From Candidatus Dormiibacterota bacterium (GTDB lineage: Bacteria > Chloroflexota > Dormibacteria > Aeolococcales > Aeolococcaceae), in assembly GCA_035995545.1 (NCBI GenBank), contig DASYKI010000016.1:664599-728598 (forward strand): a DNA stretch of 64,000 nucleotides, given 5' to 3'. The position numbers and the translations under genes were made by a program. Shown here piece by piece: positions 6,725 through 54,616 of the stretch. Position 1 is the first letter of the stretch. Every line of letters starts with the position of its first letter. The notes under the pieces are model-generated. The model ran no database searches, was not told where the DNA came from, and saw only the letters and a program-made list of their open reading frames with translations.

Positions 6725-6751
6725 TTTCGGGGCGGGCGGTCGGTCAGTGGC

Positions 6752-8401: not shown

Positions 8402-8411
8402 GGGCGCTGTA

Positions 8412-9233
8412 GTATCCCCCGCCGATGTGTCCCGCCCGCCCTCGGCGACCCCGGTGACCACGGCGCCGCGCGCCCTGGTGGTCCCGCCCGCCCTGGAGCG
8501 GCGGCTGCCCGGGCTCAGCCTGGTCATGCCCTGCCACAACGAGTCGGAGAACCTGCGCTGGCTGTTGCCCCACGTCGCCGAGGTGATGCCGCGCCTCGCC
8601 GAGGCGTACGAGGTGGTCATCGTCGACGACGGCAGCACCGACGGCAGCGGGGACGTGGCGCGATCGCTGGCCGCGTCGCTGGGCATGGACCTGCAGGTGC
8701 TGCGGCACGAGGTGAAGAGCGGATACGGCATCACCGTCGCGGACGGGCTGCGGGCGACGCGGTTGGAGTACAGCGCGTTCACCGATGCCGACGGGCAGTT
8801 CGAGGTGGCCGACCTGTCGCTGCTGATCCCGCTGCTGGACCGGGCCGACTTCGTCGGCGGGTGGCGGGAGTCGCGGTCGGACGCGGCGATGCGGTCGGTG
8901 GTGAGCGGTGTGTTCAACACGCTGCTGCGCGTTCTCTACGGGCTTCGCGTCCGAGATGCGGACTGCGCGCTGAAGGTGATGCGGACGTCGTTCCTGCGCT
9001 CGATCGACATCGAGTCGCGGTCGGCGCTGATGAACGCCGAGCTCTACATCAAGGCGCAGCGCGGGGGGTGGCGGGTGCTGCAGGTGCCGGTGCCGCACCA
9101 TCCGCGGCAGCTCGGCGTGCGCAGCGGGGCGCGGCCACGGGCGATTGCGCGGGCGGTCAAGGAGCTTGTGCTGCTTCGCTTTCGGCTGGCGCGGAGTGAG
9201 CGGGGAAGGGGGCCGGGGAGCTCAGCGCGCTGA
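8412..9233 (+). CDS. GT2 polyprenol-phosphate sugar synthase (Ppm1/DPM1/GtrB-like)
   Basis: GT-A motifs LSLVMPCHNESENL, VVIVDDGSTDGS, FTDADGQF (DxD), DCALKVMR; the start is a GTG between 8412 and 8481; divergent from the GT-C gene with near-abutting starts. Confidence 0.75.
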   Translation, partial: VSPADVSRPPSATPVTTAPRALVVPPALERRLPGLSLVMPCHNESENLRWLLPHVAEVMPRLAEAYEVVIVDDGSTDGSGDVARSLAASLGMDLQVLRHEVKSGYGITVADGLRATRLEYSAFTDADGQFEVADLSLLIPLLDRADFVGGWRESRSDAAMRSVVSGVFNTLLRVLYGLRVRDADCALKVMRTSFLRSIDIESRSALMNAELYIKAQRGGWRVLQVPVPHHPRQLGVRSGARPRAIARAVKELVLLRFRLARSERGRGPGSSAR

Positions 9234-10170: not shown

Positions 10171-10180
10171 GTGGCGCCCC

Positions 10181-27773: not shown

Positions 27774-27810
27774 GTTGCGCAATGGCTGAGTCGTGCAATG
27801 GCTGACTGGC
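27763..27810. repeat. 3 tandem copies of a 16-bp unit (CAATGGCTGAGTTGCG / CAATGGCTGAGTCGTG / CAATGGCTGACTGGCG) spanning the cupin stop and hyuA start
   Basis: Read from the sequence. Copy 1 holds the cupin stop (AAT GGC TGA). Copy 3 holds the hyuA start (ATG GCT GAC). Each of copies 1 and 2 also contains an ATG followed by an in-frame TGA 7 codons later. Confidence 0.85.
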
Positions 27811-29924: not shown

Positions 29925-29942
29925 CACAAAGGAGTGCGGTCG

Positions 29943-31541
29943 ATGCCGGTCGTGATCGACGCCGTCGAGCTGGAGGTGCTCTGGGGCAACCTGGTCAACA
30001 CCGTCAACGAGCAGGCGCGGGCCCTGCAGCGCGCCGCCTTCAGCCCCATCGTCCGCGAGGCGGGCGACCTGGCCAACGCGCTCTTCGACCAGCGCGGCCG
30101 CATGGTCGCCCAGGCGGTCACCGGCACGCCCGGCCACATCAACTCGCTGGCCATGGCGGCGCGCGAGATCCTCGCCGAGTATCCGCCGCAGGCGCTCGAA
30201 CCGGGGGATGTTCTGGTCACCAATGACCCGTACAAGACGGCCGGGCAGCTCCTCGACGTCACCGTGCTGACACCGGTGTGGCGCCAGCAGCGGATCATCG
30301 GCTTCTTCGGCTCGACCATCCATCACACCGATGTCGGCGGCTACGGGATCGGCGCGGGTGCTCGCGATGTGTTCGAGGAGGGCCTCTGGATCCCCATCAC
30401 CCGGCTGATGGTGGGCGGGCAACGCAACGTCGAGGCGTGGAAGTTCATCCTCGCCAACGTCCGCGAGCCCGACCACATGGCCGGAGACCTGCACGCGCAG
30501 ATGGCCTCCGCCGAGGTCGGTGCCCAGCGCCTGAACGCCCTCTGCGACGCGCGCGGTCTCGACGACATCGAGGCGCTCGCGGACGAGGTGATCCGCCGCT
30601 CCGAGGAGGCGACTCGCGCCGCCATCCGCCGCCTTCCCGCCGGGACCTACGAGGCGGAGTCGACGCTGGACCTTGCCGACGGCTCGGAGATCGTCATCCA
30701 CGTCGCGGTCACCGTCGACACCGAGAAGGGCGAGATCGCCGTCGACTACGCCGGCTCGTCACCGGCCAGCCCCTTCGGCATCAACGTGGTCAAGAACTAC
30801 ACCCAGGCGTACACCACCTTCACCATCCGCAGCGTCCTCAACCCCGAGGTGCCCAACAACACCGGCAGCCTGGCGCCGATCGTCGTCGACGCGCCCGCGG
30901 GCAGCATCGTCAACGCGCAGCTCCCGGCGCCGTGCACCGCGCGCCACGTGGTGGGCATGTTCCTGCCCATGCCGCTCCTCCAGGCGCTGAGCCGGTTCCT
31001 GCCCGAGGCGGTCATGGCCGAGGGGGCCGCGGCGGTCTGGACCATGCAGGTGCACGGCCACCGGCACGACGGCAGGCCCTTCGTCACCTCGATGTTCAAC
31101 TACGCCGGCGGAACCGGTGCGCGGGCGCACAAGCCCGGGCTGTCCGCCACCGCCTATCCCACCGGGGTCGCGGCGGTGCCGGTCGAGGTCGTCGAGGCGT
31201 CGGCTCCGCTGCTGTTCCTGCGCAAGGAGCTGCGCGAGGACTCCGGGGGTGTGGGACGCAGCCGGGGCGGCATGGGACAGGTGATCGAATTCACCGTCGA
31301 CACCGGCCGGCCCTGGATGCTCAACGCCGTCACCAGCAGGCTGCGCCACGGCCCGGCCGGGCTGTTCGGCGGCGGCCCCGGTGCGGTGGGCCGCTTCGTG
31401 GTCAACGGCGAGCCGGTGACCACGCAGCGCCGCATCGACCTGGAGTCCGGCGACCTGGTCCGCCTCGAGCTGCCCGGTGGCGGCGGCTACGGAGAACCGC
31501 TGCCCGCCGGTGCGGCCGGTGCCGGGAGCGCGGATGGATGA
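29943..31541 (+). CDS. hyuB: hydantoinase B/oxoprolinase family protein
   Basis: 532 aa; typical N-terminus (DAVELEVLWGNLVNTVNEQARALQRAAFSPIVREAGD) and LVTNDPY-type segments; directly follows hyuA. Confidence 0.85.
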   Translation: MPVVIDAVELEVLWGNLVNTVNEQARALQRAAFSPIVREAGDLANALFDQRGRMVAQAVTGTPGHINSLAMAAREILAEYPPQALEPGDVLVTNDPYKTAGQLLDVTVLTPVWRQQRIIGFFGSTIHHTDVGGYGIGAGARDVFEEGLWIPITRLMVGGQRNVEAWKFILANVREPDHMAGDLHAQMASAEVGAQRLNALCDARGLDDIEALADEVIRRSEEATRAAIRRLPAGTYEAESTLDLADGSEIVIHVAVTVDTEKGEIAVDYAGSSPASPFGINVVKNYTQAYTTFTIRSVLNPEVPNNTGSLAPIVVDAPAGSIVNAQLPAPCTARHVVGMFLPMPLLQALSRFLPEAVMAEGAAAVWTMQVHGHRHDGRPFVTSMFNYAGGTGARAHKPGLSATAYPTGVAAVPVEVVEASAPLLFLRKELREDSGGVGRSRGGMGQVIEFTVDTGRPWMLNAVTSRLRHGPAGLFGGGPGAVGRFVVNGEPVTTQRRIDLESGDLVRLELPGGGGYGEPLPAGAAGAGSADG

Positions 31542-40769: not shown

Positions 40770-42371
40770 GTGAACCGCTTCCCCCAGTACTCCAGCCGGC
40801 TCGCCGGCGTGGCGATCCTCGCCGTCAGCGCCGCTGCGTGTGGCAGCTCCTCGACCGCGTCGCCGAGCTCAGCGGCCTCCAGCGGGGGGACCCTGGTCAT
40901 CGCCATGACGGCGAGTGACCTGCCCGGCACGGACACCATCCTCGCTCTCGGCCAGGGCGGTGAGGGCCTGCGCTTCGTCGGCTTCCAGATCTACGAGACG
41001 CTGACCGCCGAGGACCTGACCCAGAGCACGACGCCGCCCACCATCAAGGGTGTGCTCGCCGAGTCGTGGACCATGGCCCCCGACGTCAAGACGTACACCT
41101 TCAAGCTGCGCCAGGGCGTGAAGTTCCAGGACGGCACGCCCTGGAACGCCGACGCGGCCATCTTCAACTTCCAGCGCTACATGGACAAGTCGTTCCAGTA
41201 CTACTACCCGGCGGTGGCCGGGGTCGCCGGGCTGGTCGACCATTCCATCGCCACCTACAAGAAGGTCGACGACGCCACCATCGAGCTCGTCACCAGCACT
41301 CCGTACGCCTTCCTGCCGCAGGACCTCTCGCTGCTGCCCATGGCCAGCCCGACGGCGGTGAAGGCGGTCGGCAACGACGCCTTCAAGGATCACCCCATCG
41401 GCACCGGCCCGTACGCCTTCAAGTCGCAGGTGCGCGGCCAGAACATGACCCTGGTTCGCAACGACACCTACTGGCGCGGCAAGCCCAGCCTGGACAAGAT
41501 CGTGCTGCGTCCCATCCCCGACCCGACCGCGCGCGTCGCCGCGCTGAAGTCCGGCGAGGTCAACTGGGCCGAGGCGGTCAACCCCAGCGACATCTCGGGC
41601 CTCACCGGCTCCGGCTTCCAGATCCTTACCAATCCCTACTCGCAGCAGTGGCGGTGCACTCTCGACTACACCAAGACGCCGTGGAACATCCCCGAAGTTC
41701 GCCAGGCAGCCAACTTCGCGCTGGATCGGGCCACCATGGTGGGCAGCATCCTGAAGAACACCGCGGTGGCGGCATACCAGGCGGCCTCGCCGGTGGACCC
41801 CGGGTACGACGCCAGCCTCGGCGTGTACTCGTTCGACCAGGCCAAGGCCAAGGACCTGCTCAGCAAGGCCGGCTATCCCAACGGGTTCGACACCACGCTG
41901 ACCGTGCCCACCTCGGGCTCGGGCAACATGGTTCCCGTCCCGATGGCCGAGCAGATCCAGTCGGACCTCGCCAAGGTCGGCATCCGCATCAAGGTGACGC
42001 CGATGGACTGGACCACCCTCAACGCGGAGCAGGGTGCGGGCAAGATGCCCGGTGGCGCCGACATGTCCTGCTGGGCCACCACCCTGCTGATCCCCGGGTT
42101 CTGGGGTATCTGGTTCGGTTCCACGTCGCCGGGCAACGTCAACCATGTCAAGAACGCCACCGCCGACGCGCTGCTCGCCAAGGTCCCCGGCGACGGCGAT
42201 CCCGCCACCCTGGCCAGCGATTTCAAGACCCTCAACAAGACGCTGACCGCCGACGGCGCCTGGCTGTTCGTCGCCAACGACAAGAACCCGCGCGCCCTGG
42301 CCAAGACCGTCCACGGGTTCGTCGACCCGCAGTCGTGGTTCGCCAACCTCACGACGGTCACCGTGTCGTGA
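40770..42371 (+). CDS. ABC transporter substrate-binding lipoprotein, family 5 (peptide/nickel/opine type)
   Basis: Has a lipoprotein signal (AILAVSAAACGSS) and SBP_bac_5-like size and pattern. GGAG lies 10 nt upstream of the GTG start. Confidence 0.8.
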   Translation: MNRFPQYSSRLAGVAILAVSAAACGSSSTASPSSAASSGGTLVIAMTASDLPGTDTILALGQGGEGLRFVGFQIYETLTAEDLTQSTTPPTIKGVLAESWTMAPDVKTYTFKLRQGVKFQDGTPWNADAAIFNFQRYMDKSFQYYYPAVAGVAGLVDHSIATYKKVDDATIELVTSTPYAFLPQDLSLLPMASPTAVKAVGNDAFKDHPIGTGPYAFKSQVRGQNMTLVRNDTYWRGKPSLDKIVLRPIPDPTARVAALKSGEVNWAEAVNPSDISGLTGSGFQILTNPYSQQWRCTLDYTKTPWNIPEVRQAANFALDRATMVGSILKNTAVAAYQAASPVDPGYDASLGVYSFDQAKAKDLLSKAGYPNGFDTTLTVPTSGSGNMVPVPMAEQIQSDLAKVGIRIKVTPMDWTTLNAEQGAGKMPGGADMSCWATTLLIPGFWGIWFGSTSPGNVNHVKNATADALLAKVPGDGDPATLASDFKTLNKTLTADGAWLFVANDKNPRALAKTVHGFVDPQSWFANLTTVTVS

Positions 42372-43714
42372 CCTCCGGAGCGGAACGCGCGGGCCGCGGC
42401 GCCGGCCGCGACTACGACCAGCTGGTGCAGCGGTCCCGCGTTCACCGCTCTGTGTACGTCGACGGCGACATCTTCGCCGAGGAGATGCGCAAGATCTTCG
42501 GTGCCGTGTGGACCTACCTCGGCCACGAGAGCGAGATCCCTGAGGCCAACGACTTCAAGGCGACGCGGCTGGGTCTGCGACCCGTGCTGCTCACCCGCGC
42601 GCAGGACGGCAGCATCCACGCGCTGCTCAACCGCTGCATGCACCGCGGCACCGTGGTCTGCACCGCGGCGTCGGGCAACGCGCGCAGCTTCACCTGCAGC
42701 TATCACGGCTGGACGTACTCCAACACCGGCAAGCTCACCGGCGTTCCCTTTCCCGGCGGGACCGGCCCCGACTTCGACCGCAGCGAGCTCTCGCTGCTGG
42801 CACTGCCGCAGGTGGAGTCGTACCGGGGATTCATCTTCGGCGTGCTCGACGCCAAGGCGCCGTCGCTGCGCGAGTACCTGGGCCCGGCGGCGGCGCTGCT
42901 CGACGAGTGGATCGGAGGCGGCCGGTCGCGTCGACTTGTGCTGCGTCACGGCGCCCGGCGCATCGCGGCCAACGCCAACTGGAAGCTGTACCTCGACGGC
43001 GCCGCCGACGGGCTGCACCCGCTGTTCACCCACCGCTCCTTCATCGAGCTCTGCTCGTCGCGCTATCGCCCCGGACTCTTTCTCTCCGAGTTCCGGCGCG
43101 ATCCCGACGACTCCGAGATGTACTCGCAGATCATGCCCAACGGCCACCAGTACCTCGACCAGCGGCCGAGCATGACACCGACGCGCTGGAGCGCGGCGCG
43201 GCCGATGCCCGGCATGGAACACGGTGTCGAGCGCATCCGGGCGACGCACGGCGAGCGCGCCGACGCGGTGCTGGAGCAGGCGGCGTTTGCGGGAATGAAC
43301 ATCTTCATCTTCCCCAACCTGTCCCTGGTGGACAACAACATCGGCGTCATCCAGCCGGTGGCCGCCAACCGCACCGAGATCCACTGGTACCCGGTCACCC
43401 TCTCCGACCAGCTCGACGAGACCCTGGCGTTGCGCATGCGCAACGGCGAGGACTCGGACAACTTCGTCAACGTCGACGACGTCGAGAACTGGGAGCGTGC
43501 CCAGGAGGGACTGGAGAACGTTCCCGAGGCCGAGTGGCTGCACACCGGCAGGGGCATCGGCACCTCCGAGCCCTACGACGAGTCGCAGGGCGTGGCCACC
43601 GTCGCGATCACCAACGAGGAGCCGATGCGTGCCTACCAGCAGGTGTGGAAGCGCCTGATGCAGGCACCGGCGCCGTCGCTGTCCGGAGTCGCGGAGGGCT
43701 CGGTGCCGGCATGA
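42368..43714 (+). CDS. Rieske non-heme iron aromatic-ring-hydroxylating oxygenase, alpha subunit
   Basis: Rieske ligands CMH-x17-CSYH (NRCMHRGTVVC..FTCSYHGW). A catalytic domain with the GLHPLFTHRS iron-binding His pair follows. The GTG start overlaps the SBP stop. Confidence 0.8.
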   Translation: MTSGAERAGRGAGRDYDQLVQRSRVHRSVYVDGDIFAEEMRKIFGAVWTYLGHESEIPEANDFKATRLGLRPVLLTRAQDGSIHALLNRCMHRGTVVCTAASGNARSFTCSYHGWTYSNTGKLTGVPFPGGTGPDFDRSELSLLALPQVESYRGFIFGVLDAKAPSLREYLGPAAALLDEWIGGGRSRRLVLRHGARRIAANANWKLYLDGAADGLHPLFTHRSFIELCSSRYRPGLFLSEFRRDPDDSEMYSQIMPNGHQYLDQRPSMTPTRWSAARPMPGMEHGVERIRATHGERADAVLEQAAFAGMNIFIFPNLSLVDNNIGVIQPVAANRTEIHWYPVTLSDQLDETLALRMRNGEDSDNFVNVDDVENWERAQEGLENVPEAEWLHTGRGIGTSEPYDESQGVATVAITNEEPMRAYQQVWKRLMQAPAPSLSGVAEGSVPA

Positions 43715-44301
43715 CCGAGGCCAACGGCAGCTGGGCCACCAACGAGGGCTCGCGCTACGTCACCGACGAGCTGTACGAACAGCTGCGCGAGGCCGCAGCG
43801 CGGTCGAACACGCTCGGCCGCAGCCTCGACGCGGCGGCAACCGCCGAGGCCGCGTCGCTGGTGCACTTCGAGGCGCGGCTGCTCGACGAGGGGCGGTACG
43901 GGGAGTGGACCGCGCTGTTCACCGAGGACTGCATCTACTGGGTGCCGATCACCCCGGGCGGCGGCGATCCGCGCAGCGAATGGAGCCTGGTCTTCGACGA
44001 CCGGCGCCGCCTGCTCGACCGCGTCGCCTGGCTGGAGGCCGGCTGGGTGCATCCTCGCAACCCGGCGCCCACCACCTGCCGCCTGGTGAGCAACGTCGAG
44101 GCCTTCGACCAGCCGGACGGCATGCGCCTGGTGCGCAGCAACTTCTGCATCCACGAGTCGCGCCGCGGCCGCATGCGCACCTGGGTGGGGTCCTACGAGC
44201 ACGTGCTCCGGCGCGACGGCGACGCGTGGCTGATCCACCGCAAGCGCGCGATGCTGGTGGACTCGGCGGAGGCCCACGAGAACCTCGTCATCATCCTCTG
44301 A
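43711..44301 (+). CDS. ring-hydroxylating dioxygenase beta subunit (NTF2/SnoaL-like fold)
   Basis: ~196 aa; conserved FEARLLDEGRYGEWTALFTEDCIYWVP pattern typical of beta subunits; ATGA overlap with alpha. Confidence 0.7.
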   Translation: MTEANGSWATNEGSRYVTDELYEQLREAAARSNTLGRSLDAAATAEAASLVHFEARLLDEGRYGEWTALFTEDCIYWVPITPGGGDPRSEWSLVFDDRRRLLDRVAWLEAGWVHPRNPAPTTCRLVSNVEAFDQPDGMRLVRSNFCIHESRRGRMRTWVGSYEHVLRRDGDAWLIHRKRAMLVDSAEAHENLVIIL

Positions 44302-44308
44302 CGCCGAG

Positions 44309-45253
44309 ATGCTGCGATACACCGCCAAGCGCATCGGGCTGATCCTGCCGATCCTCCTCGGTGTGTCGCTGGTCGTGTTCGTGCTGCTGCATCTCACCCC
44401 CGGCAGCCCCGTCGACGCGCTGCTCGGGCCGATCGGGACCCCGCAGCAGCGGGCCAGCCTGGAGCACGACCTGGGCCTGGCGCAACCGCTGCCGGTGCAG
44501 TACTTCTCGTGGCTGCGCGGCATCGCCACCGGCAACCTGGGGACGTCGATCGCCGCGCAGTCGCCGGTGCTGCCGATCATCTCCGACGCCTTCCTCAACA
44601 CGCTGATCCTCACGGCGTTCGCGGGCGCCGTGGCGGTGATCGGCGGCCTGGTGCTGGGCACGCTGTGGGCGACCAGCCCGCACGCGGCGGTCCGCCGTGT
44701 CGCGGCCGCGCTGTCCGTCTCCGCGCTGTCGGCGCCGCAGTACGCGGTCGCGGTCATCCTCATCGTCGTGGTCGGTGTCCAGCTGCAGTGGCTTCCCGTC
44801 GGTGGCATGTACAGCTCCATCGACGGCGGTGGGCTGGTCGACCTGGGCCGGCACATCGTGCTGCCGGGGATCGCGGCGGCGCTGGTGCCGCTGGGGATCA
44901 TCGCGCGCATGTTCCGCGCCTCGCTGCTGGACGTGCTCGACCAGGGCTTCGTGGAAAGCCTCACCGCGCGCGGGCTGTCGCGCGCCCGAGTTCTGGCCCA
45001 CGCCGCCCACAACGCGATGCCGCCGATGCTCACCGTCGCCGGGCTGCAGTTCGGCTACCTGCTCGGCGGCGTGCTCTTCGTCGAGGTGATCTTCGTCTGG
45101 CCGGGCATGGGTCTCGCCGTCTACCAGGCGATCACCCAGCGCGACTACCCGATCATCCAGGCGGGCGTCCTCCTCGGCGCGTTCGCCTTCGTAGCCCTCA
45201 ACCTCGTCGTCGACGTGCTGCACGCCGCCGTCGACCCGCGCATCCGCCACTGA
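44309..45253 (+). CDS. ABC transporter permease (DppB/OppB-like)
   Basis: 314 aa, 6 TM, BPD_transp_1 with N-terminal MLRYTAKRIGLILPILLGVSLVVFVLLHLTPG. Confidence 0.8.
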   Translation: MLRYTAKRIGLILPILLGVSLVVFVLLHLTPGSPVDALLGPIGTPQQRASLEHDLGLAQPLPVQYFSWLRGIATGNLGTSIAAQSPVLPIISDAFLNTLILTAFAGAVAVIGGLVLGTLWATSPHAAVRRVAAALSVSALSAPQYAVAVILIVVVGVQLQWLPVGGMYSSIDGGGLVDLGRHIVLPGIAAALVPLGIIARMFRASLLDVLDQGFVESLTARGLSRARVLAHAAHNAMPPMLTVAGLQFGYLLGGVLFVEVIFVWPGMGLAVYQAITQRDYPIIQAGVLLGAFAFVALNLVVDVLHAAVDPRIRH

Positions 45254-45258
45254 GACGC

Positions 45259-46176
45259 ATGCTGAGCACCACCGACGTCCCACTCCGCCGCGGCTCGCGC
45301 CCGGCGCCACCGCCGGGTGCGCGCACCGCGACGCGCGGCCGCCGCCTGTGGGCCGTGGCTCGCCGCCACCCCGCGGCCGCGGTGGCGGCCGGGTTCCTGC
45401 TCGTTCTCGCCGCCGCCTCGCTGTGCGCACCGATCCTGCCGCTGCCCGACCCGGTGCGCGTCGACTCGCCAAGCGCCACCTTGGGTTTCGGCACCGCCGG
45501 CCACCTGCTGGGAACCGACCGCCTGGGCCGCGACATCCTCAGCAGGCTGATCTGGGGCGCGCGACCCTCGTTGATCATGGGCCTGGCTCCGGTGCTCATC
45601 GGCGGCTTCATCGGCACCACGCTCGGGGTCACGGCGGGGATGTCCGGGCCCCGGGTGCGCGCCGTGATCATGCGCACCCTCGACGTCTTCTACGCCTTTC
45701 CCGCGGTGCTGCTGGCCATCGCCATCGCCGCCGCGCTGGGCGCGGGCATGACCACCGCCATCATCGCCATCACCGTGATCGTGGTGCCGCCGGTGGCGCG
45801 GCTCGCCGAGAGCGAGGTGCTCGGCATGATGCGCAAGGACTTCATGCTGTCCGCGCGCGCCAGCGGGGCGCGCCAGCTCAGCATCGCGCTGCGCCAGGTG
45901 ATGCCCAACGTCGCCGGTCCGCTGGTGGTGTACTGCACGGCGCTGGTCGGGCTCTCCATCGTGTACGCGGCGGGTCTCGGGTTTCTCGGGCTCGGCCTCA
46001 ACCCACCCACCCCGGAGTGGGGCGCGATGGTCAACGAGCTGCGCACCCTGGTGTTCAGCCAGCCGTGGGTGTCGCTGACACCTGCGGTGGTGCTGCTGCT
46101 GGTGTCGATCGCCTTCAACGTGCTCGGTGACGGGCTGCGCGACGTGCTCGCGGTGGGACGGGGGACACAGCTGTGA
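45259..46176 (+). CDS. ABC transporter permease (DppC/OppC-like)
   Basis: EAA-like loop and 6 TM; the ATG at 45259 sits just after the DppB stop. Confidence 0.8.
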   Translation: MLSTTDVPLRRGSRPAPPPGARTATRGRRLWAVARRHPAAAVAAGFLLVLAAASLCAPILPLPDPVRVDSPSATLGFGTAGHLLGTDRLGRDILSRLIWGARPSLIMGLAPVLIGGFIGTTLGVTAGMSGPRVRAVIMRTLDVFYAFPAVLLAIAIAAALGAGMTTAIIAITVIVVPPVARLAESEVLGMMRKDFMLSARASGARQLSIALRQVMPNVAGPLVVYCTALVGLSIVYAAGLGFLGLGLNPPTPEWGAMVNELRTLVFSQPWVSLTPAVVLLLVSIAFNVLGDGLRDVLAVGRGTQL

Positions 46177-47228
46177 GCATGGTCAGCACCGGCCTCGCCG
46201 CCACCGCGCGCGCCAGCTCTGAGCGCGACGATGCCGCAGCGCTGGCCGTCGACGACCTCGAGGTGGTGATCGCCGCCACCGGACGGCGGGTGCACGCGGT
46301 GCAGGGCGTCAGCTTCGCGGTGGCTCCCGGCGGGACGCGCATCCTGCTCGGTGAGAGCGGCTGCGGCAAGTCGGCCACGCTGCGCGCCGTGATGCGCCTG
46401 TTCGGCCGCGACACGGTGATCCGCGGCAGGGTCCGGCTCGACGGGCACGACCTGCTCACCCTGCCCGACCGCGACATGCGCTCCGTGCGCGGCCGCGATG
46501 TCGCCCTGGTGCCGCAGGATCCCAATGCAGCCCTCGACCCGCTGCGACGCGTCGGCGGCCAGCTCGCCGAGCAGCTGCGCGCGCATCAGCCCGACATGGG
46601 CCGGCGCCAGGCGAGCCGGCGTGCCGAGGAGCTGCTGCACATGGTGCGCCTGCCCGATCCCAGGAGTGCCGCGCGTGCGTTTCCCCACGAGCTGTCGGGC
46701 GGCATGCGCCAGCGCGTGGCCATCGCCCTGGCGGTGAGCTGCTCGCCCAAGGTGCTGCTCGCCGACGAGCCGACCACCGCGCTCGACGTCACCGTGCAGG
46801 CGCAGATCCTCGAACTGCTCGCCGGGCTGCAGCAGACCATGCAGATGGCCCTGCTGCTGGTCACCCACGACGTCGGCGTCGTCCGCGAGCTGGGTGGGTC
46901 GATCAGCGTGATGTACGCCGGCCGCGTGGTCGAGGACGGTGCGGTCGCCGACGTCCTCGACCGTCCCGCCCATCCGTACCTGGCCGGACTGCTCGCCTCG
47001 CAGCCCGGTCCCGGCGTGGCCCGCGGCGGGCTGATCCCGATCGCGGGACAGCCGCCGTCGCTGGAGGAGAGTGCGCTGGTGCGGGGGTGCGCGTTCCACG
47101 AGCGCTGCGCCTCCGCGCGCGAGCAGTGCACGCGGGCGCAGCCGCCGCTGGTTGCGGTCAGGCCTGGCCATGACGCCGCCTGCCCGGTGTGGAACCCACC
47201 GCAGGGCGGCGAGGCGGTGCAGCCGTGA
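46173..47228 (+). CDS. ABC transporter ATP-binding protein (DppD-like, with C-terminal oligopeptide extension)
   Basis: Walker A GESGCGKS, signature LSGGMRQR, Walker B LLADEPTTALD. Confidence 0.8.
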   Translation: MSMVSTGLAATARASSERDDAAALAVDDLEVVIAATGRRVHAVQGVSFAVAPGGTRILLGESGCGKSATLRAVMRLFGRDTVIRGRVRLDGHDLLTLPDRDMRSVRGRDVALVPQDPNAALDPLRRVGGQLAEQLRAHQPDMGRRQASRRAEELLHMVRLPDPRSAARAFPHELSGGMRQRVAIALAVSCSPKVLLADEPTTALDVTVQAQILELLAGLQQTMQMALLLVTHDVGVVRELGGSISVMYAGRVVEDGAVADVLDRPAHPYLAGLLASQPGPGVARGGLIPIAGQPPSLEESALVRGCAFHERCASAREQCTRAQPPLVAVRPGHDAACPVWNPPQGGEAVQP

Positions 47229-48232
47229 CGCCGCTGCTGGAGGTGACCGGGCTGCACAAGACGTACGACAACGGCGTGCGCGCCGTCAACGGCATCGACC
47301 TGCACGTCGATCGTGGCGAGACGCTCGGCGTGGTCGGCGAGTCGGGCTCGGGAAAGTCGACAGCCGCGCGGCTGATCCTGCGACTCACCGAGCCGGACGC
47401 CGGGGCGGTGCGGCTCGAAGGCGAGGACGTGCTGGCGATGCGCGGTCGCCGCCTGCGCGAGGCGCGGGGCCGGATGCAGTTCGTGCCGCAGGACCCCGCC
47501 AGCGCGCTCAACCCGCGCATGACGGTGCGGCAGAGCATCGAGTTCAACCTGCGCGCCCACCGCTGGCCGGCGCCGGCGCGGCGCGAACGCATTGCCGAGC
47601 TCCTCGACGCCGTCGGCCTGGGTGCGGAGATGAGCGGGCGGCGTCCACACGAGCTGTCGGGCGGGCAGGTGCAGCGTGTCGCCCTGGCGCGTGCACTGGC
47701 AACACGTCCCGACCTGGTCATCTGCGACGAGCCGGTGTCCGGTCTCGACCGCAGCGTCCAGGCACAGGTGCTCAACCTGCTGGTGCGGCTGCAGCGCGAG
47801 CTCGGTGTGGCCATGATCTTCATCTCCCACGACCTCACCGTCGTGGAGCACATCGCCGACCGTGTCGCGGTGATGTACCTCGGCACCGTGGTCGAGGAGG
47901 CCAGTGCCGAACGCTTGTGGCACAACGCCATGCACCCGTACTCCCGCGCGCTGCTGTCGGCGATCCCGGGGACGTCGGGGGCGCGCATCATCCTGGAGGG
48001 TGATCCGCCGAGCCCGCGCGCCGTGCCGTCCGGCTGCGTGTTCAGCTCGCGGTGCGCATACGCGATCGACGAGTGCAGGCGTGCCGTCCCGCCGCTGGAG
48101 GACAGGGGCGCGCACCAGCGGGTCGCCTGCATCCGCGCACCGATCGCGTGGGCCGAGCTCTCGCCCCTCGATCCCGCCTCGCTGAATGCGAGTCGTGGCG
48201 CGAGCAACGGCCTCACGGCACACCCCGCGTGA
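47225..48232 (+). CDS. ABC transporter ATP-binding protein (DppF-like)
   Basis: Walker A GESGSGKST, signature LSGGQVQR, Walker B VICDEPVSGLD; GTG start overlapping the previous stop. Confidence 0.8.
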   Translation: MTPLLEVTGLHKTYDNGVRAVNGIDLHVDRGETLGVVGESGSGKSTAARLILRLTEPDAGAVRLEGEDVLAMRGRRLREARGRMQFVPQDPASALNPRMTVRQSIEFNLRAHRWPAPARRERIAELLDAVGLGAEMSGRRPHELSGGQVQRVALARALATRPDLVICDEPVSGLDRSVQAQVLNLLVRLQRELGVAMIFISHDLTVVEHIADRVAVMYLGTVVEEASAERLWHNAMHPYSRALLSAIPGTSGARIILEGDPPSPRAVPSGCVFSSRCAYAIDECRRAVPPLEDRGAHQRVACIRAPIAWAELSPLDPASLNASRGASNGLTAHPA

Positions 48233-49608
48233 TCGACCTCCTGCTGACCAACGCGGAGGTGGTGACGCCCTCGGGAGTCGTGCACGGAGACGTGGCCGTC
48301 GACGGCGGGCGCATCGTCGCGGTGGGGCAGGATGCCGGCGACGCACGGCGAGTCATCGACGTCGACGGGCGCATCGTGATGCCCGGTGTCTTCGACCCGC
48401 ACGTCCACTTCGGCCTGGCCGGGACCTACGGCGACGACACCATGCTGGAGGACTTCCGGCACAACACGCGCGACTGCCTGGTCGGCGGTGTCACCACCGT
48501 GGCCACGACCACCCTGCCCGGCGCCGACCTGGTCGTCGAGTACGAGCGCACCGCCGCGGTCGCCGTGGGGCATTCGTGGTGTGACTACCGGCTCGTCTCC
48601 ATCGTCGGACGGCGACCCCAGGTGGCCCAGATCCGCGAGGTGGTGGCCCGCGGCGGCACCGCCTTCAAGTTCTTCACCGGCATGGTGGGCAACGAGGCGG
48701 TGGCCCTGGGCGGAACCCCGGAGGGCATTCCCCCCGACTTCTTCCTGGAGGCGTGCGACGCGCTGCGCGCCACCGGCAGCGGTGCCTTCCCGATGATCCA
48801 CGCGGAGGAGCCGTCGGTGCGCGGCGCGCTGCTCGACCGCGTCCGCCGCTCGGGTCGTGCTGACCACCTGGTCGCCTGGGCGGACGCCAGTCCCGCGTGG
48901 GCGGAGAGTGCGCAGATCTACGGCTACGGGCTGGTGGCGCGCCAGGCCCGCGTTCCGCTGTATCCCGTCCATCTCAGCGCCGCGGAGAGCATCGACACCG
49001 TCGCCGTCCTGCAGAGCCAGGGATTCGACGTGCCCGCCGAGACCGTCGTCCACTACCTGTGCACCACCGCGGACGAGATCCAGCTCGCCGGCCTGGGTGT
49101 CCGGGCCAAGGTGCAGCCGCCGATCCGCTTCGAGCGCGACCGGCAGCGCCTCTGGCGCGGCATCGCCGAGGGCACCATCAAGGTGGTCGGCACCGACAGC
49201 GGCACGTACTCGCTGAGCATGCGCCAGGGTCCCGACTTCTGGGAGTGCCGCGTCGGCCTGCCGCTGCAGGTGGCCGACACCCTGCCGCTGATGTACACCG
49301 AGGGTGTCGCCGCCGGACACATCGACCTGCTCACCCTGTCCCAGGTGCTCAGTGCGAATGCGGCGCGGCTGCACGGGATCTACCCGCGCAAGGGAGCCAT
49401 CGCGCCGGGCAGCGACGCCGACATCGTGGTGATCGACCAGCACACTCCGGTGCGGCTGGGGGCGCACCGCTATCGCGGGCACACCGACTACACGCTGTGG
49501 GAGGGCCGCGAGGTGACCGGTGTGCCGGTGATGACCTTCCTGCGCGGCAAGCTGGTCATGCAGGACGGCGAGATCGTCGACGAGGTGCCCACCGGTGTCG
49601 CCGTCTAG
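48229..49608 (+). CDS. cyclic amidohydrolase (hydantoinase/dihydropyrimidinase-like, amidohydrolase superfamily)
   Basis: HxH metal motif in PGVFDPHVHFGLAG; candidate carboxylated-lysine context FKFFTGM; the GTG start overlaps the previous stop. Confidence 0.7.
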   Translation: MIDLLLTNAEVVTPSGVVHGDVAVDGGRIVAVGQDAGDARRVIDVDGRIVMPGVFDPHVHFGLAGTYGDDTMLEDFRHNTRDCLVGGVTTVATTTLPGADLVVEYERTAAVAVGHSWCDYRLVSIVGRRPQVAQIREVVARGGTAFKFFTGMVGNEAVALGGTPEGIPPDFFLEACDALRATGSGAFPMIHAEEPSVRGALLDRVRRSGRADHLVAWADASPAWAESAQIYGYGLVARQARVPLYPVHLSAAESIDTVAVLQSQGFDVPAETVVHYLCTTADEIQLAGLGVRAKVQPPIRFERDRQRLWRGIAEGTIKVVGTDSGTYSLSMRQGPDFWECRVGLPLQVADTLPLMYTEGVAAGHIDLLTLSQVLSANAARLHGIYPRKGAIAPGSDADIVVIDQHTPVRLGAHRYRGHTDYTLWEGREVTGVPVMTFLRGKLVMQDGEIVDEVPTGVAV

Positions 49609-50857
49609 CCCGCCGCCGGCTCGCCGCACCTGGGACAGGCTGCGCGAGCTCGCTGAGATCACCGCTCCCGGCGACGGCGTCTCCCGCGACGGCTACAGCG
49701 CCTATGAACGTCTCGCCCAGGACCTGGTCGGCGCTTGGATGCGCGACGCGGGCCTGAGCGTGACGCGCGATCATGCGGGCAACCTGCGCGGGCGCGTTGC
49801 CGGCCGGGATCCGCTGCTGCCCGCGGTGTGGGTGGGCTCGCACCTCGACTCCGTTCCCGGCGGCGGGCGCTTCGACGGAGCCTACGGCGTGGTCGGCGGC
49901 CTGGCCGCCGTCGAGGCGGCGACGGGCGGCGAGACGCCGCTGCGCTCCATCGAGCTGGTCGCGTTCGCATGTGAGGAGGGCGCGCGCTTCGGCACGGGGC
50001 TGCTGGGCAGCCGCGGGCTGGTCGAGGGCTGGGCGGACGTCGACGTCGACGCGCTGGTCGACCGCGACGGTGTGAGCCTGCGCGCCGCGCTCGCCTCGGT
50101 CGGGCTCGACGCCGAGGCGGTGCGTGCGCCGTCACTGACGCCGGGCAGCGTCCACTGCTTCGTGGAGCTGCACGTCGAGCAGGGTCCGGTGCTCGACACC
50201 GCGGCAGCGACCATCGGCGTGGTCAGCGCCATCGCCGCACCGACGTACCTGCGTGTGCGATTCGAGGGAGCCGCGGGACACGCCGGGACGACACCCATGG
50301 TGGGGCGGCGCGACGCGCTGGTGGGTGCTGCCGAGGCGATCCTGGAGGTGGAGCGCGCCGCGCGCTCGTATGACGGCGCCGCCGTCTCGACGGTCGGGTT
50401 CCTGGCCGTGCACCCCAACTCCGCCAACGTGATCCCCGGCAGCGTGACCTTCTCCGTCGACGTGCGCGCCCTCGATGCGGACACCAAGCGGCGGCTGGTG
50501 GAGGAGATCGCGGCCGGCCTGCAGCGAACCGCGCAGGCGAGGTCGCTGCAGCTCAGCGTCGCGACGCTCGCCGACCTGGCACCGGTGGCGTGCCACCCGC
50601 CGATCCAGGGCGCGGTGCGCGACGCGGCGACGTCGCTGGGGCTGCCCTGGCTCGACATGCCCAGCGGCGCGTACCACGACGCCATGGCGATGAGCCGGGT
50701 GTGCCCGGTGGGCATGGTGTTCGTCCCCAGCGCGCGCGGGTTGAGCCACGTCGCCGAGGAGTGGACCAGCCCGGACGACCTGGAGCACGGCGTCGACGTC
50801 CTCGCCGAGGTGCTGCGCACGCTCGCATCCACGACAGGCATCGAAGGAGCAGGGTGA
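49595..50857 (+). CDS. M20-family Zn amidase of the hydantoinase/carbamoylase group (N-carbamoyl-amino-acid or allantoate amidohydrolase-like)
   Basis: Carries the HAGNLRGRVAG, VWVGSHLDSVPGGGRFDGAYGV and FACEEGARFG metal-ligand pattern typical of AmaB/AllC-like enzymes. Confidence 0.75.
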   Translation: MSPSSPPPARRTWDRLRELAEITAPGDGVSRDGYSAYERLAQDLVGAWMRDAGLSVTRDHAGNLRGRVAGRDPLLPAVWVGSHLDSVPGGGRFDGAYGVVGGLAAVEAATGGETPLRSIELVAFACEEGARFGTGLLGSRGLVEGWADVDVDALVDRDGVSLRAALASVGLDAEAVRAPSLTPGSVHCFVELHVEQGPVLDTAAATIGVVSAIAAPTYLRVRFEGAAGHAGTTPMVGRRDALVGAAEAILEVERAARSYDGAAVSTVGFLAVHPNSANVIPGSVTFSVDVRALDADTKRRLVEEIAAGLQRTAQARSLQLSVATLADLAPVACHPPIQGAVRDAATSLGLPWLDMPSGAYHDAMAMSRVCPVGMVFVPSARGLSHVAEEWTSPDDLEHGVDVLAEVLRTLASTTGIEGAG

Positions 50858-52233
50858 TGACCACGACACTACTCACGGGCGGCACGGTTGCCTCGGCGAT
50901 GGGGTCGTACCCGGCGGACGTCCTCATCGACTCGGGACGCATCGCCGCCGTGGGTGCCGGCGCCGGCTTCGTGGCCGACCGGGTTGTGGACGTGAGTGGC
51001 AAGATCCTGCTGCCCGGCGGCGTCGACGTGCACACCCACCTCGACGCGCCGTTCATGGGCACGATCACGGCCGACGACTTCAACACCGGCACCATCGCCG
51101 CGGCCTGCGGCGGCACCACCACCATCGTCGACTTCGCCATGCAGTCGCGCGGCCAGAAGCTGGGCGCGGTGCTGGAGCAGTGGCACGCCAAGGCCGCGGG
51201 TCGCGCCGCCGTCGACTACGGGTTCCACATGGCCGTGACCGACCTCTACGACGGCGCCGTCGCCGACATGGACGGGGTGATCCGCGACGGCGTGACCAGC
51301 TTCAAGCTGTTCATGGCCTACAAGGGCCAGATCATGCTGGACGACGGCGAGATCTTCCGCATCCTGCGCACGGCGGGACGCTCCGGCGCCACCGTGTGCC
51401 TGCACGCGGAGAACGGCTACATCATCGACGTGCTCGCCGAGGAGCTGGTGCACTCGGGCAAGCGCGACCCCACCTTCCACGCCGTCTCGCGTCCCCCGGC
51501 CACCGAGATCGAGGCGGTACGCCGGGCCATCGCCATCGCGCGCATGGCCGATGCGCCGGTGTACTTCGTCCACCTGTCGACCGCCGGAGCGGTGGACGCG
51601 GTTGGCGAATCGCGGATGTCGGGATGGCCGGTGGCGGGGGAGACGTGCACCCACTACCTGCTGCTCGGCCCCGAGCTGTACGACGCGCCCGACTTCGAGG
51701 GCGCCAAGGTGGTGCTCACCCCGCCGCTGCGCGAGGCGCCCGACCGCGAGGCGCTGTGGGCGTCGCTGCGCACCGGCGTGCTCAGCGTTGTCAGCTCGGA
51801 CCACTGCCCGTTCTGCTTCGTCGGGCAGAAGGAAATGGGTCGCGACGACTTTCGCAAGATCCCCAACGGCGGCCCCGGGATCGAGCACCGCCTCCTGCTG
51901 CTCTACGGGCAGGGCGTGCGGCAGGGTCGGCTCACCCTGGAGCAGTTCGTCGACGTCGTGGCCACGTCACCCGCCAAGCAGTTCGGGCTCTTTCCCCGCA
52001 AGGGCGCGATCCTCCCCGGGGCGGACGCCGACGTCGTCGTGCTCGACCCCGCTGGGACCACCACGATCGCCGCCGCGACGCAGCACCAGAACCTCGACTA
52101 CACGCCGTACGAGGGCTGGACCGTGCCCGGACGCATCGACGCGGTGTACCTGCGCGGCGAGCTGGTCGTGCGCGACGGCGACTACGTGGCCGCCGCACCG
52201 GGAGGTGCGTTCCTGGCACGCAGAACGCTGTGA
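50857..52233 (+). CDS. D-hydantoinase/dihydropyrimidinase
   Basis: HxH in GGVDVHTHL, carboxylated-lysine motif FKLFMAYKG, and downstream His in VCLHAENG. Confidence 0.8.
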   Translation: MTTTLLTGGTVASAMGSYPADVLIDSGRIAAVGAGAGFVADRVVDVSGKILLPGGVDVHTHLDAPFMGTITADDFNTGTIAAACGGTTTIVDFAMQSRGQKLGAVLEQWHAKAAGRAAVDYGFHMAVTDLYDGAVADMDGVIRDGVTSFKLFMAYKGQIMLDDGEIFRILRTAGRSGATVCLHAENGYIIDVLAEELVHSGKRDPTFHAVSRPPATEIEAVRRAIAIARMADAPVYFVHLSTAGAVDAVGESRMSGWPVAGETCTHYLLLGPELYDAPDFEGAKVVLTPPLREAPDREALWASLRTGVLSVVSSDHCPFCFVGQKEMGRDDFRKIPNGGPGIEHRLLLLYGQGVRQGRLTLEQFVDVVATSPAKQFGLFPRKGAILPGADADVVVLDPAGTTTIAAATQHQNLDYTPYEGWTVPGRIDAVYLRGELVVRDGDYVAAAPGGAFLARRTL

Positions 52234-53279
52234 CCGACTACGCGCACCTGGTGCGCAGCGATCGCGTCCACCGGCGGCTGTATGTCGACCAGGACATCTT
52301 CGCCGACGAGATGGAGCGCATCTTCGGCCGCAGCTGGGTGTACCTCGCTCACCAGAGCGAGCTGCCCTCGCCTCTGGACGAGGCGATGGCGGATCTCGGC
52401 AGGCGCATGGCGCGTATCGCGTCGTATCGCGGGCTGATCTTCGGTTCGCGCAGCGACGACGTGCCGCCGCTGGCCGAGCATCTCGGCGCCGTGGCGGGCC
52501 TGCTCGACCAGTGGCTCGACCGTGCGCCGGACGGCGAGGTGTTCGTCGGCCATGGCACCCGGGTGATCAGCGCGCGTGCCAACTGGAAGCTGTACCTGGA
52601 CGGTGCGGCCGATGGCCTGCACCCCCTGTTCACCCATCGCTCCTACCTGGAACTCTCGTCGCAGCGCAGCGGGTCGCGCAAGTTCCTCTCCGAGTTCCGG
52701 GCCGATCCCGACCGCACCGCGATGTACGCGCAGGTGCTCGGCGACGGCCACCAGTTCCTCGACCAGCGCCCGACGCGGCAGCCGTCGCTGTGGAGTGCGA
52801 TGCCCAAGGTTCCCGGCACCGAGCACGTGGTGGCGCAGATCTCGGCGCGGTACGGCGATCGCACTCCCGCGGTTCTGGAACGCACCGCCTTCGCCGCCAT
52901 GAACATCTTCGTCTTCCCCAATCTCTCCATCGTCGAGAACGCCATCGGCGTGATCTGCCCGCTGGCGGTCAACCGCACCGAGGTGCGCTGGTCGCGGGTG
53001 AGCCTCAGGGGAGCTGAGCCCGAGGCGTTGCCGCTGCAGATGCGGCTCGCCGAGGAGTCGGACGGCTTCATCGACGTCGACGACATCGAGAACTGGGAGC
53101 GCGCCCAGGAAGGCCTGGAGGCGGTGCCCGAGGCGGAGTGGCTGCACACCGGGCGCGGACTGGGGCTGCCGTCGACGCGCGATGATCGCGGCGTCGAGAC
53201 CGTGGCGGTGACCAACGAGGCGCCGATGCGCGCCTACCAGGCCGAGTGGCTGCGCCTGATGACGCGGCGGCCGGACTAG
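52230..53279 (+). CDS. Rieske-less paralog of the oxygenase alpha subunit (catalytic mononuclear-iron domain only)
   Basis: Aligns by eye with the 42368..43714 protein at both ends (N-terminal RRLYVDQDIFADEMERIFG; catalytic ANWKLYLDGAADGLHPLFTHRS; C-terminal VENWERAQEGLEAVPEAEWLHTGRG). The ~95-aa segment with CxH..CxxH is replaced by LDEAMADLGRRMARI. No beta subunit follows. Confidence 0.7.
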   Translation: MTDYAHLVRSDRVHRRLYVDQDIFADEMERIFGRSWVYLAHQSELPSPLDEAMADLGRRMARIASYRGLIFGSRSDDVPPLAEHLGAVAGLLDQWLDRAPDGEVFVGHGTRVISARANWKLYLDGAADGLHPLFTHRSYLELSSQRSGSRKFLSEFRADPDRTAMYAQVLGDGHQFLDQRPTRQPSLWSAMPKVPGTEHVVAQISARYGDRTPAVLERTAFAAMNIFVFPNLSIVENAIGVICPLAVNRTEVRWSRVSLRGAEPEALPLQMRLAEESDGFIDVDDIENWERAQEGLEAVPEAEWLHTGRGLGLPSTRDDRGVETVAVTNEAPMRAYQAEWLRLMTRRPD

Positions 53280-54616
53280 GGAAACGCGAGCAGCGCCGCC
53301 GCGATTGCAGCCAGCGCGGCGGTGAGTGGTGTCATCTGGCCGGAGTTGCGGAGCGCGTCGAGGTCACGCAGCTGCGCGGCGATCTCGTCAGCGGTGGCGC
53401 ACTTCTCGAGGCGGATGCCACGGGCGCGCGAGTCGAGGTACCCGGCGATGATCGACTCGAGGTAGTGCGCGTCGTAGTCGTAGGCGTCGCCGCCCGGCGT
53501 GAAGTGGTGAGACCCGGGGAGGCTGAGGCGAAACAGGCATCTGCCGATCTGCGTCTCCACATCCGGCTCGGGGTTGGCGGCAGAGAACCCGTTCATCGGC
53601 GCCAGGTCCTGCACACCGCCGGGTCCCGGCGCCTGCGCCAAGATCACCGACGGTGCACGCATGGCGACGCCCTGGTGGGTGGCGCGGTCCGCCGCCAGCT
53701 GCTTCGCCGCGGTGGTCGGCACCAGCGCACTGCTCAGCTGCTGGTCGCTGACCACCTGGATGGCGACGATGCCGCCGGGGAACTGGATCGAGCACTGCGT
53801 CGCCGGCGGCACTTCCGACGGCTGGTAGGTCACTGTTGGCGGCGCTTTGGGATAGAGCTTGGCGATGACGTCCTGGCGGATGCAGGGGTCGACCCCACCC
53901 GCCGGCAGGGCGAGCCGCGGGGCTGGGGACGCCTGACCGGTGAGGTGGGCCACGAGGCCGGGCGCCAGGGTCTGGGCCTTGCCGAGCAGCGCGGCGTACG
54001 CCGCCGTGGGATCGCCGCCGTGGATCTTGATGTCGTCCAGCCGCTTCTGGGCGGCGGCCCCCGGGCTCGCCTTGACGACCAGCACCTGCGCTCCCTTGAG
54101 CACCGTCACCACGCCGTTGGACTGCACCGCCTTGTCGCCGAGCCCAGCTGCCACGCTCGGCGGCGGGTTGCCGCGGGTCTGGGCCGCGAACACCTGCTGG
54201 GCGGCCTGTGCGGTGTCGAGGGAGGAGAGCGTGATGCTGAGCATCGTGTCCGTCGTCGTGGTGCCCACGCGGGTCGTGCTGACATGGCCGGCGGGCGAGC
54301 TGGGGACGCCGCCGTCGTCCTCGGGACCGAGCACGTCCTCGCCGAGTGCCGCCCGGTAGCCGGCGGCGTCGAGAAGCGCGAAGGCGCTGAGGCCGCGGTC
54401 GGCCGGCGCCGCGGTCGGCACCCCGCTCGGCGGCGCCGAGGACGACGTGCTCGGTCCCGCGCTCGGCGAGGCCCCGCCGGTCGCTGAGCTGCCACACGCC
54501 GAGACCGTCACCACCGCGGCCAGGGCCGCGACGACGGCCGTTCGACCAGACGCACGCCCGCGGTGCGCGCCTGCGCTCGGCCGAGCAGTCGTCCGCATGG
54601 GCGCATGATGGGTCAT
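53276..54616 (-). CDS. secreted lipoprotein of unknown function
   Basis: Protein-like from MTHHAPMRTTARP..AVVAALAAVVTVSACGSS (signal peptide plus lipobox-like VSAC) to the end. The upstream ~200 codons of the track ORF are low-complexity. Convergent with the Rieske-less gene with a 4-bp overlap. Confidence 0.5.
   Translation of the reverse strand: MTHHAPMRTTARPSAGAHRGRASGRTAVVAALAAVVTVSACGSSATGGASPSAGPSTSSSAPPSGVPTAAPADRGLSAFALLDAAGYRAALGEDVLGPEDDGGVPSSPAGHVSTTRVGTTTTDTMLSITLSSLDTAQAAQQVFAAQTRGNPPPSVAAGLGDKAVQSNGVVTVLKGAQVLVVKASPGAAAQKRLDDIKIHGGDPTAAYAALLGKAQTLAPGLVAHLTGQASPAPRLALPAGGVDPCIRQDVIAKLYPKAPPTVTYQPSEVPPATQCSIQFPGGIVAIQVVSDQQLSSALVPTTAAKQLAADRATHQGVAMRAPSVILAQAPGPGGVQDLAPMNGFSAANPEPDVETQIGRCLFRLSLPGSHHFTPGGDAYDYDAHYLESIIAGYLDSRARGIRLEKCATADEIAAQLRDLDALRNSGQMTPLTAALAAIAAALLAFP

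Follow-up and report, generated by a model that had tools for sequence, protein, structure and literature searches.

In Rieske oxygenases, the mononuclear iron of the catalytic domain is reduced by the Rieske cluster of the neighboring alpha subunit via a bridging aspartate, as is established for naphthalene dioxygenase (NDO) and biphenyl dioxygenase (BPDO). NdmC, the catalytic subunit of the N7-demethylase NdmCDE of Pseudomonas putida CBB5, has a non-heme iron and no Rieske cluster and is functional, using the extra Rieske domain of the reductase NdmD, aided by NdmE (PMC4408171, PMC10380055). In that system, NdmD carries the Rieske domain, the glutathione S-transferase (GST)-like NdmE is required, all of the components are co-encoded, and homologous clusters occur in about 18 organisms. 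Here, we describe a gene that likewise encodes a catalytic subunit without a Rieske cluster, a 349-residue alpha-subunit paralog (the short alpha) at 52230..53279 on the + strand of a 64,000-nucleotide stretch of Candidatus Dormiibacterota DNA (GenBank assembly GCA_035995545.1, contig DASYKI010000016.1, positions 664,599 to 728,598), which is referred to below as the window. Compared by the description of NdmC, the short alpha differs in that none of these partners turned up among the genes examined across the 64 kb, in belonging to an alpha3beta3-type lineage, and in being a singleton. The gene, as defined by its open reading frame, Pfam content, and AlphaFold2 model, is a genuine, intact-frame copy of the catalytic domain of a Rieske oxygenase alpha subunit without the Rieske part. 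We consider it, with about evenly balanced confidence, to be a nascent, still in-frame loss-of-function allele, most likely derived from an evolutionarily young deletion, where both the youth of the deletion and the loss of function are what we infer from the comparisons presented below.

The short alpha gene and its missing segment

The GTG start codon of the short alpha gene overlaps the TGA stop codon of the preceding dihydropyrimidinase gene (GTGA), and the frame is open over 349 codons, with no frameshift, premature stop, or lost start codon. The G+C content at third codon positions (GC3) is 0.914, similar to that of the neighboring genes, and no additional inactivating lesions were found in the gene, the frame, GTG start, metal ligands, and codon signature all being intact. 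The encoded protein is identical to HEV7679845.1, which is annotated by NCBI as an 'SRPBCC family protein' from a Candidatus Dormibacteraeota bacterium metagenome-assembled genome (MAG). In a Pfam scan, it matched PF00848 (Ring_hydroxyl_A) alone, over residues 108-345 (E 3.4e-15; 57 bits vs a cutoff of 24.9), and no match to PF00355 (Rieske) was found. The full-length alpha paralog of the same operon (42368..43714, + strand; 448 residues), which is 57-58% identical to the short alpha, contains both PF00355 (residues 48-129) and PF00848.

BLASTP aligns the two proteins in two collinear blocks, the first pairing residues 3-59 of the short alpha with residues 15-71 of the paralog at 54% identity and the second pairing residues 60-344 with residues 146-431 at 58% identity, and a MAFFT alignment with 20 relatives places a single clean gap in the short alpha, with no inserted residues. 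By both methods, the segment of the paralog without a counterpart in the short gene comprises residues 72-145 (74 residues, 222 bp; 42581..42802, + strand) and includes both [2Fe-2S] ligand loops, and the remainder of the 99-residue difference in length comes from the paralog being longer by 12 N-terminal and 13 C-terminal residues. An earlier note on this DNA had described an in-frame loss of the Rieske domain in which ~95 residues were replaced by a short linker after a retained N terminus of ~45 residues, and had called for a pairwise alignment to define the boundaries. The loss in frame stands, given the clean gap, the lack of a PF00355 match, and the absence of the ligand motif, and the alignment does define the missing part, as residues 72-145 of the full-length protein. 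The dimensions change, however, as 74 rather than ~95 residues are gone, the retained N terminus is 59 residues long, and no linker is present, since R59 and M60 are joined directly in the MAFFT and BLASTP alignments (nt 52406|52407; residues across the junction, ...MADLGRRMARIASYR...). Roughly residues 36-59 represent the first strand region of the Rieske domain, and the leftover stub of this domain around the R59|M60 junction extends over about residues 36-72 (52332..52445, + strand), as delimited by BLASTP, MAFFT, and a dip in the predicted local distance difference test (pLDDT) score at residues 41-60. The possibility raised in the earlier note that the Cys/His ligands had merely been misread by eye is answered by the alignment and by a six-frame motif search of the 64-kb window, both of which confirm that they are absent from the short alpha; CxH-x17-CxxH occurs once, at 42635..42706, inside the full-length paralog. 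No relocated copy of the missing Rieske segment was found elsewhere in the window by tblastn, and microhomology at the deletion boundaries was uninformative, the divergence of the paralog being too great for it to serve as a proxy for the ancestor.

The catalytic domain, in turn, is retained together with the GLHPLFTHRS iron-ligand pair, just as first described. This motif is present in both alphas and lies within a 22-residue run that the alignment shows to be identical in the two proteins, ANWKLYLDGAADGLHPLFTHRS (52578..52643, + strand), which holds the bridging Asp128 and the iron ligands His131 and His136, and the carboxylate iron ligand region, VDDIENWE, with the invariant Asp284/Asp285, is aligned at 53076..53099 (+ strand). 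The D128, H131, H136, and D284/D285 columns are invariant across 59 family sequences and are kept in the short alpha; from the phmmer register and the NDO numbering, we take these residues to be equivalent to D205, H208, H213, and D362 of NDO.

The AlphaFold2 model of the short alpha, which was based on a 59-sequence alignment, is compact (pLDDT 92.2, predicted TM score 0.92), with pLDDT dropping to 84/71 over residues 41-60, the junction region. Foldseek and phmmer place the protein with alpha3beta3 enzymes, namely IadD/E (7yls/8h2t), HcaE (8k0a), BPDO (2xrx), and NDO (1ndo). It is like the alpha subunits of these enzymes in its catalytic sequence (phmmer E 4.5e-32) and predicted fold (Foldseek E 6e-22 to 1e-14, TMq 0.71-0.77), in having the 2-His-1-carboxylate ligands and the bridging Asp, and in that its operon includes a beta subunit gene. 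It is unlike them in missing the 74 residues that contain both [2Fe-2S] loops and in having no adjacent beta gene, whereas the solved relatives are all at least 413 residues long and all have a Rieske domain. Because there is no cluster in the short alpha, a homo-oligomer of this protein would have no point of electron entry and could not be a self-sufficient oxygenase, and any activity of the short alpha would need a Rieske center in trans.

Distribution of the short form and age of the deletion

A search for homologs gave 176 matches at E<=1e-10, with domain content taken from the 120 listed. Among these listed matches (120 of 176), the complete homologs have both the Rieske and the catalytic domain, except for P0110, a distant (37% identical) Rieske-less protein with other deletion boundaries, and the remaining Rieske-less entries are contig-end fragments. 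The relatives recovered in scans of genome and metagenome contigs are all full-length, at 53-58% identity, and a beta gene directly follows the alpha gene wherever the contig of a relative extends beyond alpha (genome and metagenome loci; contigs of P0002 and P0004). No close ortholog was returned by a search with the N-terminal 227 residues of the short alpha, and no Rieske-less ortholog by a search with the whole protein, while a synteny search via the adjacent hydantoinase gene yielded the same clone only, plus relatives with a 72%-identical hydantoinase and another downstream oxygenase. Conservation of the Rieske-less form in relatives had been put forward earlier as the argument for function; such orthologs were searched for and none were found, the sole close ortholog being a deleted relic. 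The short form is confined to one clonal strain and is unique among the retrievable relatives.

Searching with the adjacent hydantoinase gene, together with exact-sequence lookup, recovered the short gene base-for-base identical in two further assemblies (L019, L020). A 108-kb contig of JGI 3300035673 is 100% identical to the window over 21.4 kb and a 34-kb contig of JGI 3300041409 over 16.5 kb, in each case including the 349-residue gene, and the NCBI MAG contig (952,863 bp) is the third record that agrees across the junction. An assembly artefact is ruled out by the identity of the three assemblies over the junction. As the three are 100% identical over 16.5-21.4 kb, they represent one clone and add no evolutionary depth.

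The only close ortholog, P0090/P0398, is a relic in a sister lineage (L025, L001), at 85-86% nucleotide identity. On L025 (JGI 3300060323, 45.6 kb), a 330-residue open reading frame at 10001-10993 fuses residues 135-302 of the M20 amidase (85% nucleotide identity to window positions 50001..50499) in frame with alpha residues 226-348 (86% to 52909..53269), and the relic is found again at 4-600 of L001, a 1.1-kb contig from another sample that is 99.6% identical to L025. An assembly chimera at the L001 junction was considered and ruled out, as L025 shares the junction and the parental sequences overlap by only ~1 nt; the relic is therefore a real deletion product. It is flanked by a urease operon and a YggT-like gene, and the other genes of the operon are absent there. 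Since the sister lineage keeps the relic only, the module is dispensable and deletion-prone in this clade.

In Tajima relative-rate tests of the short alpha against the full-length paralog with 10 outgroups, limited to columns present in the short alpha, 29-51 unique changes were counted for the former vs 35-49 for the latter (all p>0.1). Family-invariant columns are changed at 3/66 positions in the short alpha (F->L, R->Q, and D->E, all conservative) vs 6/72 in the functional paralog, and conserved-column deviations in the Rieske stub (residues 36-72) are 1/8, 2/18, and 5/27 vs 0/8, 2/18, and 5/27. The two alphas are weakly sister (51% bootstrap) within a 100%-supported clade of a neighbor-joining tree, with equal branch lengths, and have the derived motif E(E/D)SD.F..VDD in common. 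When the window is compared with the relic, the Nei-Gojobori ratio of nonsynonymous to synonymous substitution rates (dN/dS) is 0.11 over 121 C-terminal alpha codons (bootstrap 0.05-0.22; dS 0.59) and 0.19 over 168 M20 codons (0.12-0.31; dS 0.47). Purifying selection thus acted on both lineages over almost the whole time since they separated, the lesions in both being recent by comparison, and the low dN/dS of 0.11-0.19 implies that the decay of the relic is very recent. Taken together, these tests point to a gene lineage that stayed functional throughout, with no measurable evolution after the loss of the Rieske part. As there is neither an acceleration in rate nor a relaxation at the stub, the conservation of the short alpha can have been inherited from its full-length ancestor, which favors the view that the lesion is fresh. 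Assuming neutrality from the deletion onward, the age of the deletion would be below roughly 0.02 dS units, as against a dS of 0.59 to the sister lineage, which is our own estimate and an upper bound only. As for the dN/dS check proposed in the earlier note, the value of 0.11 against the sister relic and the absence of acceleration are what would be expected whether the gene is functional or the lesion is very young.

With these data, we rate a young loss-of-function allele as slightly more likely than an active subunit. The points that favor it are the restriction of the short form to one clone, the retention of the Rieske domain by relatives in its own clade, with beta following alpha at every locus that could be checked, the lack of a partner nearby, and the discarding of the module by the sister lineage, and these comparisons reveal no sign that selection ever acted on the short form. 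The gene is a genuine orphan paralog of the alpha3beta3-type alpha of the operon, from which a 222-bp in-frame deletion has removed 74 codons, taking the whole [2Fe-2S]-binding part. What is left is the N-terminal helix with a short beta stub, along with the catalytic domain in full, and the allele lies in the 3' module of an operon that is undergoing loss by deletion in this clade. Like young internal-deletion pseudogenes, the gene is without an essential domain that all orthologs have, is strain-restricted, and has a further-deleted relic in a sister lineage, but, unlike them, it retains an intact frame, start, set of ligands, and codon signature, and dN/dS is not measurably elevated.

Several considerations weigh against a loss-of-function allele. 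That the deletion is in frame is a 1-in-3 chance, and that it falls wholly within the Rieske domain and leaves a predicted compact fold would be a roughly 1-in-10 outcome, by our own estimate, for a random 222-bp deletion. All of the metal ligands and the bridging Asp are intact, as is the translational coupling to the upstream gene. The dN/dS of 0.11 would prove function if the deletion predated the sister split, and the sampling covers two lineages only, which makes the singleton status weak evidence. In addition, Rieske-less alpha-like proteins recur in other clades, some persisting through 48% identity, and Rieske-less catalytic subunits can work, as exemplified by NdmC (PMC4408171). The three readings that the earlier note had set side by side, a hetero-oligomer partner, a scaffold, and a fresh pseudogene, are accordingly narrowed rather than decided, with the last favored by the uniqueness of the short form and by the lack of a post-deletion signal. 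If the gene is a nascent pseudogene, it represents ordinary gene decay caught early, and its main use would be as a case showing that 'SRPBCC family protein' annotations can conceal truncated oxygenases.

Operon context and readings with function

The window is 71% G+C, and in a GC3 frame plot, genes on the + strand follow one another without a break between about 27.3 and 53.3 kb. By Pfam and NCBIfam assignments, the operon begins with a GntR regulator, a DeoC aldolase, an aldo-keto reductase, an alcohol dehydrogenase, and an APH-type kinase, and continues with two glyoxalase-fold proteins, a short-chain dehydrogenase/reductase, and an HpcH aldolase. These are followed by an SBP5 binding protein, the full-length alpha (42368), its beta subunit (43711), and the two permeases and two ATPases of an Opp/Dpp-type ATP-binding cassette (ABC) transporter, and the 3' part comprises a cyclic amidohydrolase, an M20 amidase of the hydantoinase/carbamoylase family (49595..50857, + strand; residues 135-302 survive in the sister-lineage relic), a bona fide dihydropyrimidinase/D-hydantoinase (50854..52233, + strand; TIGR02033, 604 bits) whose stop overlaps the start of the short alpha, and finally the short alpha itself. 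It is, as had been claimed, the last gene of this long operon, the next gene (53276..54421, - strand) being convergent and overlapping its stop by 4 nt; this gene, which encodes 381 residues without a Pfam match, marks the operon end, and no terminator-like hairpin was found between the two. The further claim that the short alpha has no beta of its own also holds, as no beta gene adjoins it and tblastn found no beta relic in the window; the sole beta subunit (PF00866; 43711..44301, + strand) is a possible shared partner. Among the Pfam-scanned genes of the 64-kb window, no ferredoxin, reductase (Fer2/FAD/NAD domains), GST-like, or second Rieske protein was found.

The full-length alpha/beta pair lies inside the Opp/Dpp-type transporter operon (40770..48232), between the SBP5 gene and the permeases, and an Acidimicrobiales genome (L007, 9998-17287) has the same set in the order alpha-beta-permease-permease-ATPase-ATPase-SBP5. 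This placement, seen in both genomes, points to a small polar or peptide-like substrate and not a classic aromatic hydrocarbon. On the contig of P0002, the closest full-length relative (L026), two divergent alpha/beta pairs about 2 kb apart (6083-7947, - strand, and 10001-11865, + strand) adjoin a sugar-type ABC transporter, and paralogous alpha/beta duplication seems to be common in this clade. Just upstream of the operon in the window, 27798..31538 encodes a caprolactamase-like/hydantoinase A + B (oxoprolinase family) pair (PF02538; NF050156 CapA-like at E 1e-146, yet below the cutoff), followed by an AMP-dependent ligase, and constitutes a second cyclic-amide-opening system. In four contigs that carry the 72%-identical hydantoinase P0278 (L021-L024), the place of the Rieske alpha after the M20-amidase/dihydropyrimidinase pair is taken by a full cluster for a soluble diiron monooxygenase, with two Phenol_Hydrox subunits, MmoB, and a Fer2-FAD reductase. 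This suggests that an oxygenase step belongs to this hydantoinase module. Elsewhere in the window, two adjacent large open reading frames on the - strand (4604..6751 and 6755..8935; 716 and 727 residues, GC3 0.90-0.94) did not match any Pfam family at E<=1e-5.

The alternative that survives best, which we regard as possible but doubtful, is that the short alpha works as a catalytic subunit that receives its electrons in trans, in mixed hexamers with the co-transcribed full-length alpha (42368..43714) and the single beta (43711..44301). The Rieske cluster of a full-length neighbor would reduce the iron of the short alpha via Asp128-His131, providing a second substrate pocket per electron-entry module. 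The ligands and the bridging Asp are invariant, the catalytic domain is as conserved as that of the paralog, the predicted fold is compact, and the short gene shares its operon with the proposed partners. A beta of its own is lacking both in the window and in the sister relic, yet dN/dS is 0.11, and an orphan alpha that is under purifying selection without its own beta probably already shared the alpha/beta components of the operon. The diiron monooxygenase that directly follows the M20-hydantoinase pair in the relatives with a 72%-identical hydantoinase also hints that an oxygenase belongs to the module. Several features argue in the other direction, as conserved orthologs without the Rieske domain were not found, the stub does not look adapted, an identity of only 57-58% between the two alphas makes their co-assembly uncertain, and the sister lineage discarded the module. 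Moreover, much of the contact between alpha subunits in this fold is from Rieske to catalytic domain, which counts against such hexamers, and a full-length subunit placed beside a missing Rieske domain would lose its own electron supply, making the short form partly dominant negative. Mixed alpha3alpha'3 Rieske oxygenases are, on the other hand, among the listed known architectures (PMC12445004), and a hetero-oligomer is physically plausible. Were the short alpha active, no earlier case would be on record of a Rieske oxygenase subunit of the alpha3beta3 type borrowing the cluster of a neighbor. It would be a natural experiment on inter-subunit electron transfer and a route by which substrate pockets could be added with no duplication of the redox module.

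We consider it improbable that the short alpha belongs to an NdmC-like split system, in which a separate Rieske ferredoxin or Rieske-bearing reductase encoded elsewhere in the genome would dock at the former Rieske site. NdmC, with the Rieske domain of NdmD and with NdmE, sets the precedent (PMC4408171, PMC10380055), and the operons of other Rieske-less proteins (P0110, P0134/P0146, P0255) have no adjoining Rieske partner either, so that these proteins, if active, would as a rule depend on a donor encoded at a distance. The 64 kb contains no second CxH..CxxH, however, and its scanned genes include no reductase, ferredoxin, or GST-like protein; the nearest solved relatives (IadD/E, HcaE, BPDO) are of the alpha3beta3 and not the alpha3 Ndm type, and the gene is a lone case whose deletion looks young. 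A non-redox role, in which the protein would act as a ligand-binding (SRPBCC-fold) or scaffold subunit, for example by binding beta or a substrate without catalysis, appears to us a slighter prospect still. The NCBI SRPBCC family annotation and a fold that is predicted to be intact would agree with it, but the strict retention of the ligands and of the Asp fits catalytic ancestry and would not be needed for binding alone, and the short form is not conserved in other lineages. Finally, that the deletion arose in assembly or binning, or that it is a variant carried by a minor part of the population, is hardly credible even for a MAG, as three assemblies agree base for base at the junction and over 16-21 kb around it, with no junction repeat able to collapse an assembly.

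Other Rieske-less alpha-like proteins

An exhaustive HMMER search starting from P0110 revealed several independent groups of alpha-like proteins of about 372-389 residues that are without the [2Fe-2S] loops and keep the NWK..D.YH..H and DD motifs. In one group, P0110 (L002 6301-7419, L003 160-1278), P0147, and P0148 have their nearest full-length relatives in P0129 and P0130, at 57-63% identity; P0134, P0156, and P0146 share one architecture, with P0134 and P0146 being 48% identical; and P0255 (L030 8001-9170) and P0237 are further Rieske-less members. These proteins are like the short alpha in their architecture, in which an N-terminal helix and a Rieske stub precede a catalytic domain that is intact and bears the iron motifs, and, where the context is visible, in being orphans without a beta or Rieske neighbor, often at the end of a catabolic operon. 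They differ in their deletion boundaries, in being only 32-40% identical to the short alpha, and, for the form shared by P0134 and P0146, in having been kept through deep divergence. As the deletion boundaries differ between groups, the losses are independent, and the common architecture of P0134 and P0146 at 48% identity indicates that at least one Rieske-less lineage is old. Loss of the Rieske cluster is therefore a repeated event in the superfamily and is in some cases maintained.

A search for Rieske-less oxygenase subunits beyond NdmC found nothing relevant in the searchable literature. The recurrence of such proteins raises the prior that they can function, without showing it for the short alpha, and these recurrent proteins may matter more than the short alpha itself. 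That the latter is at once an active, trans-reduced subunit of the alpha3beta3 type and an instance of a wider, repeatedly arisen, and undescribed Rieske-less class beyond NdmC is, in our view, rather unlikely. Two further alpha-like proteins from the HMMER search, likewise with the iron-ligand motifs of the catalytic domain, keep the length of the Rieske region: P0266 (419 residues) has no Cys/His ligands there at all, and P0186 (402 residues) has CPSC...CSSC, with four cysteines, in place of CxH...CxxH.

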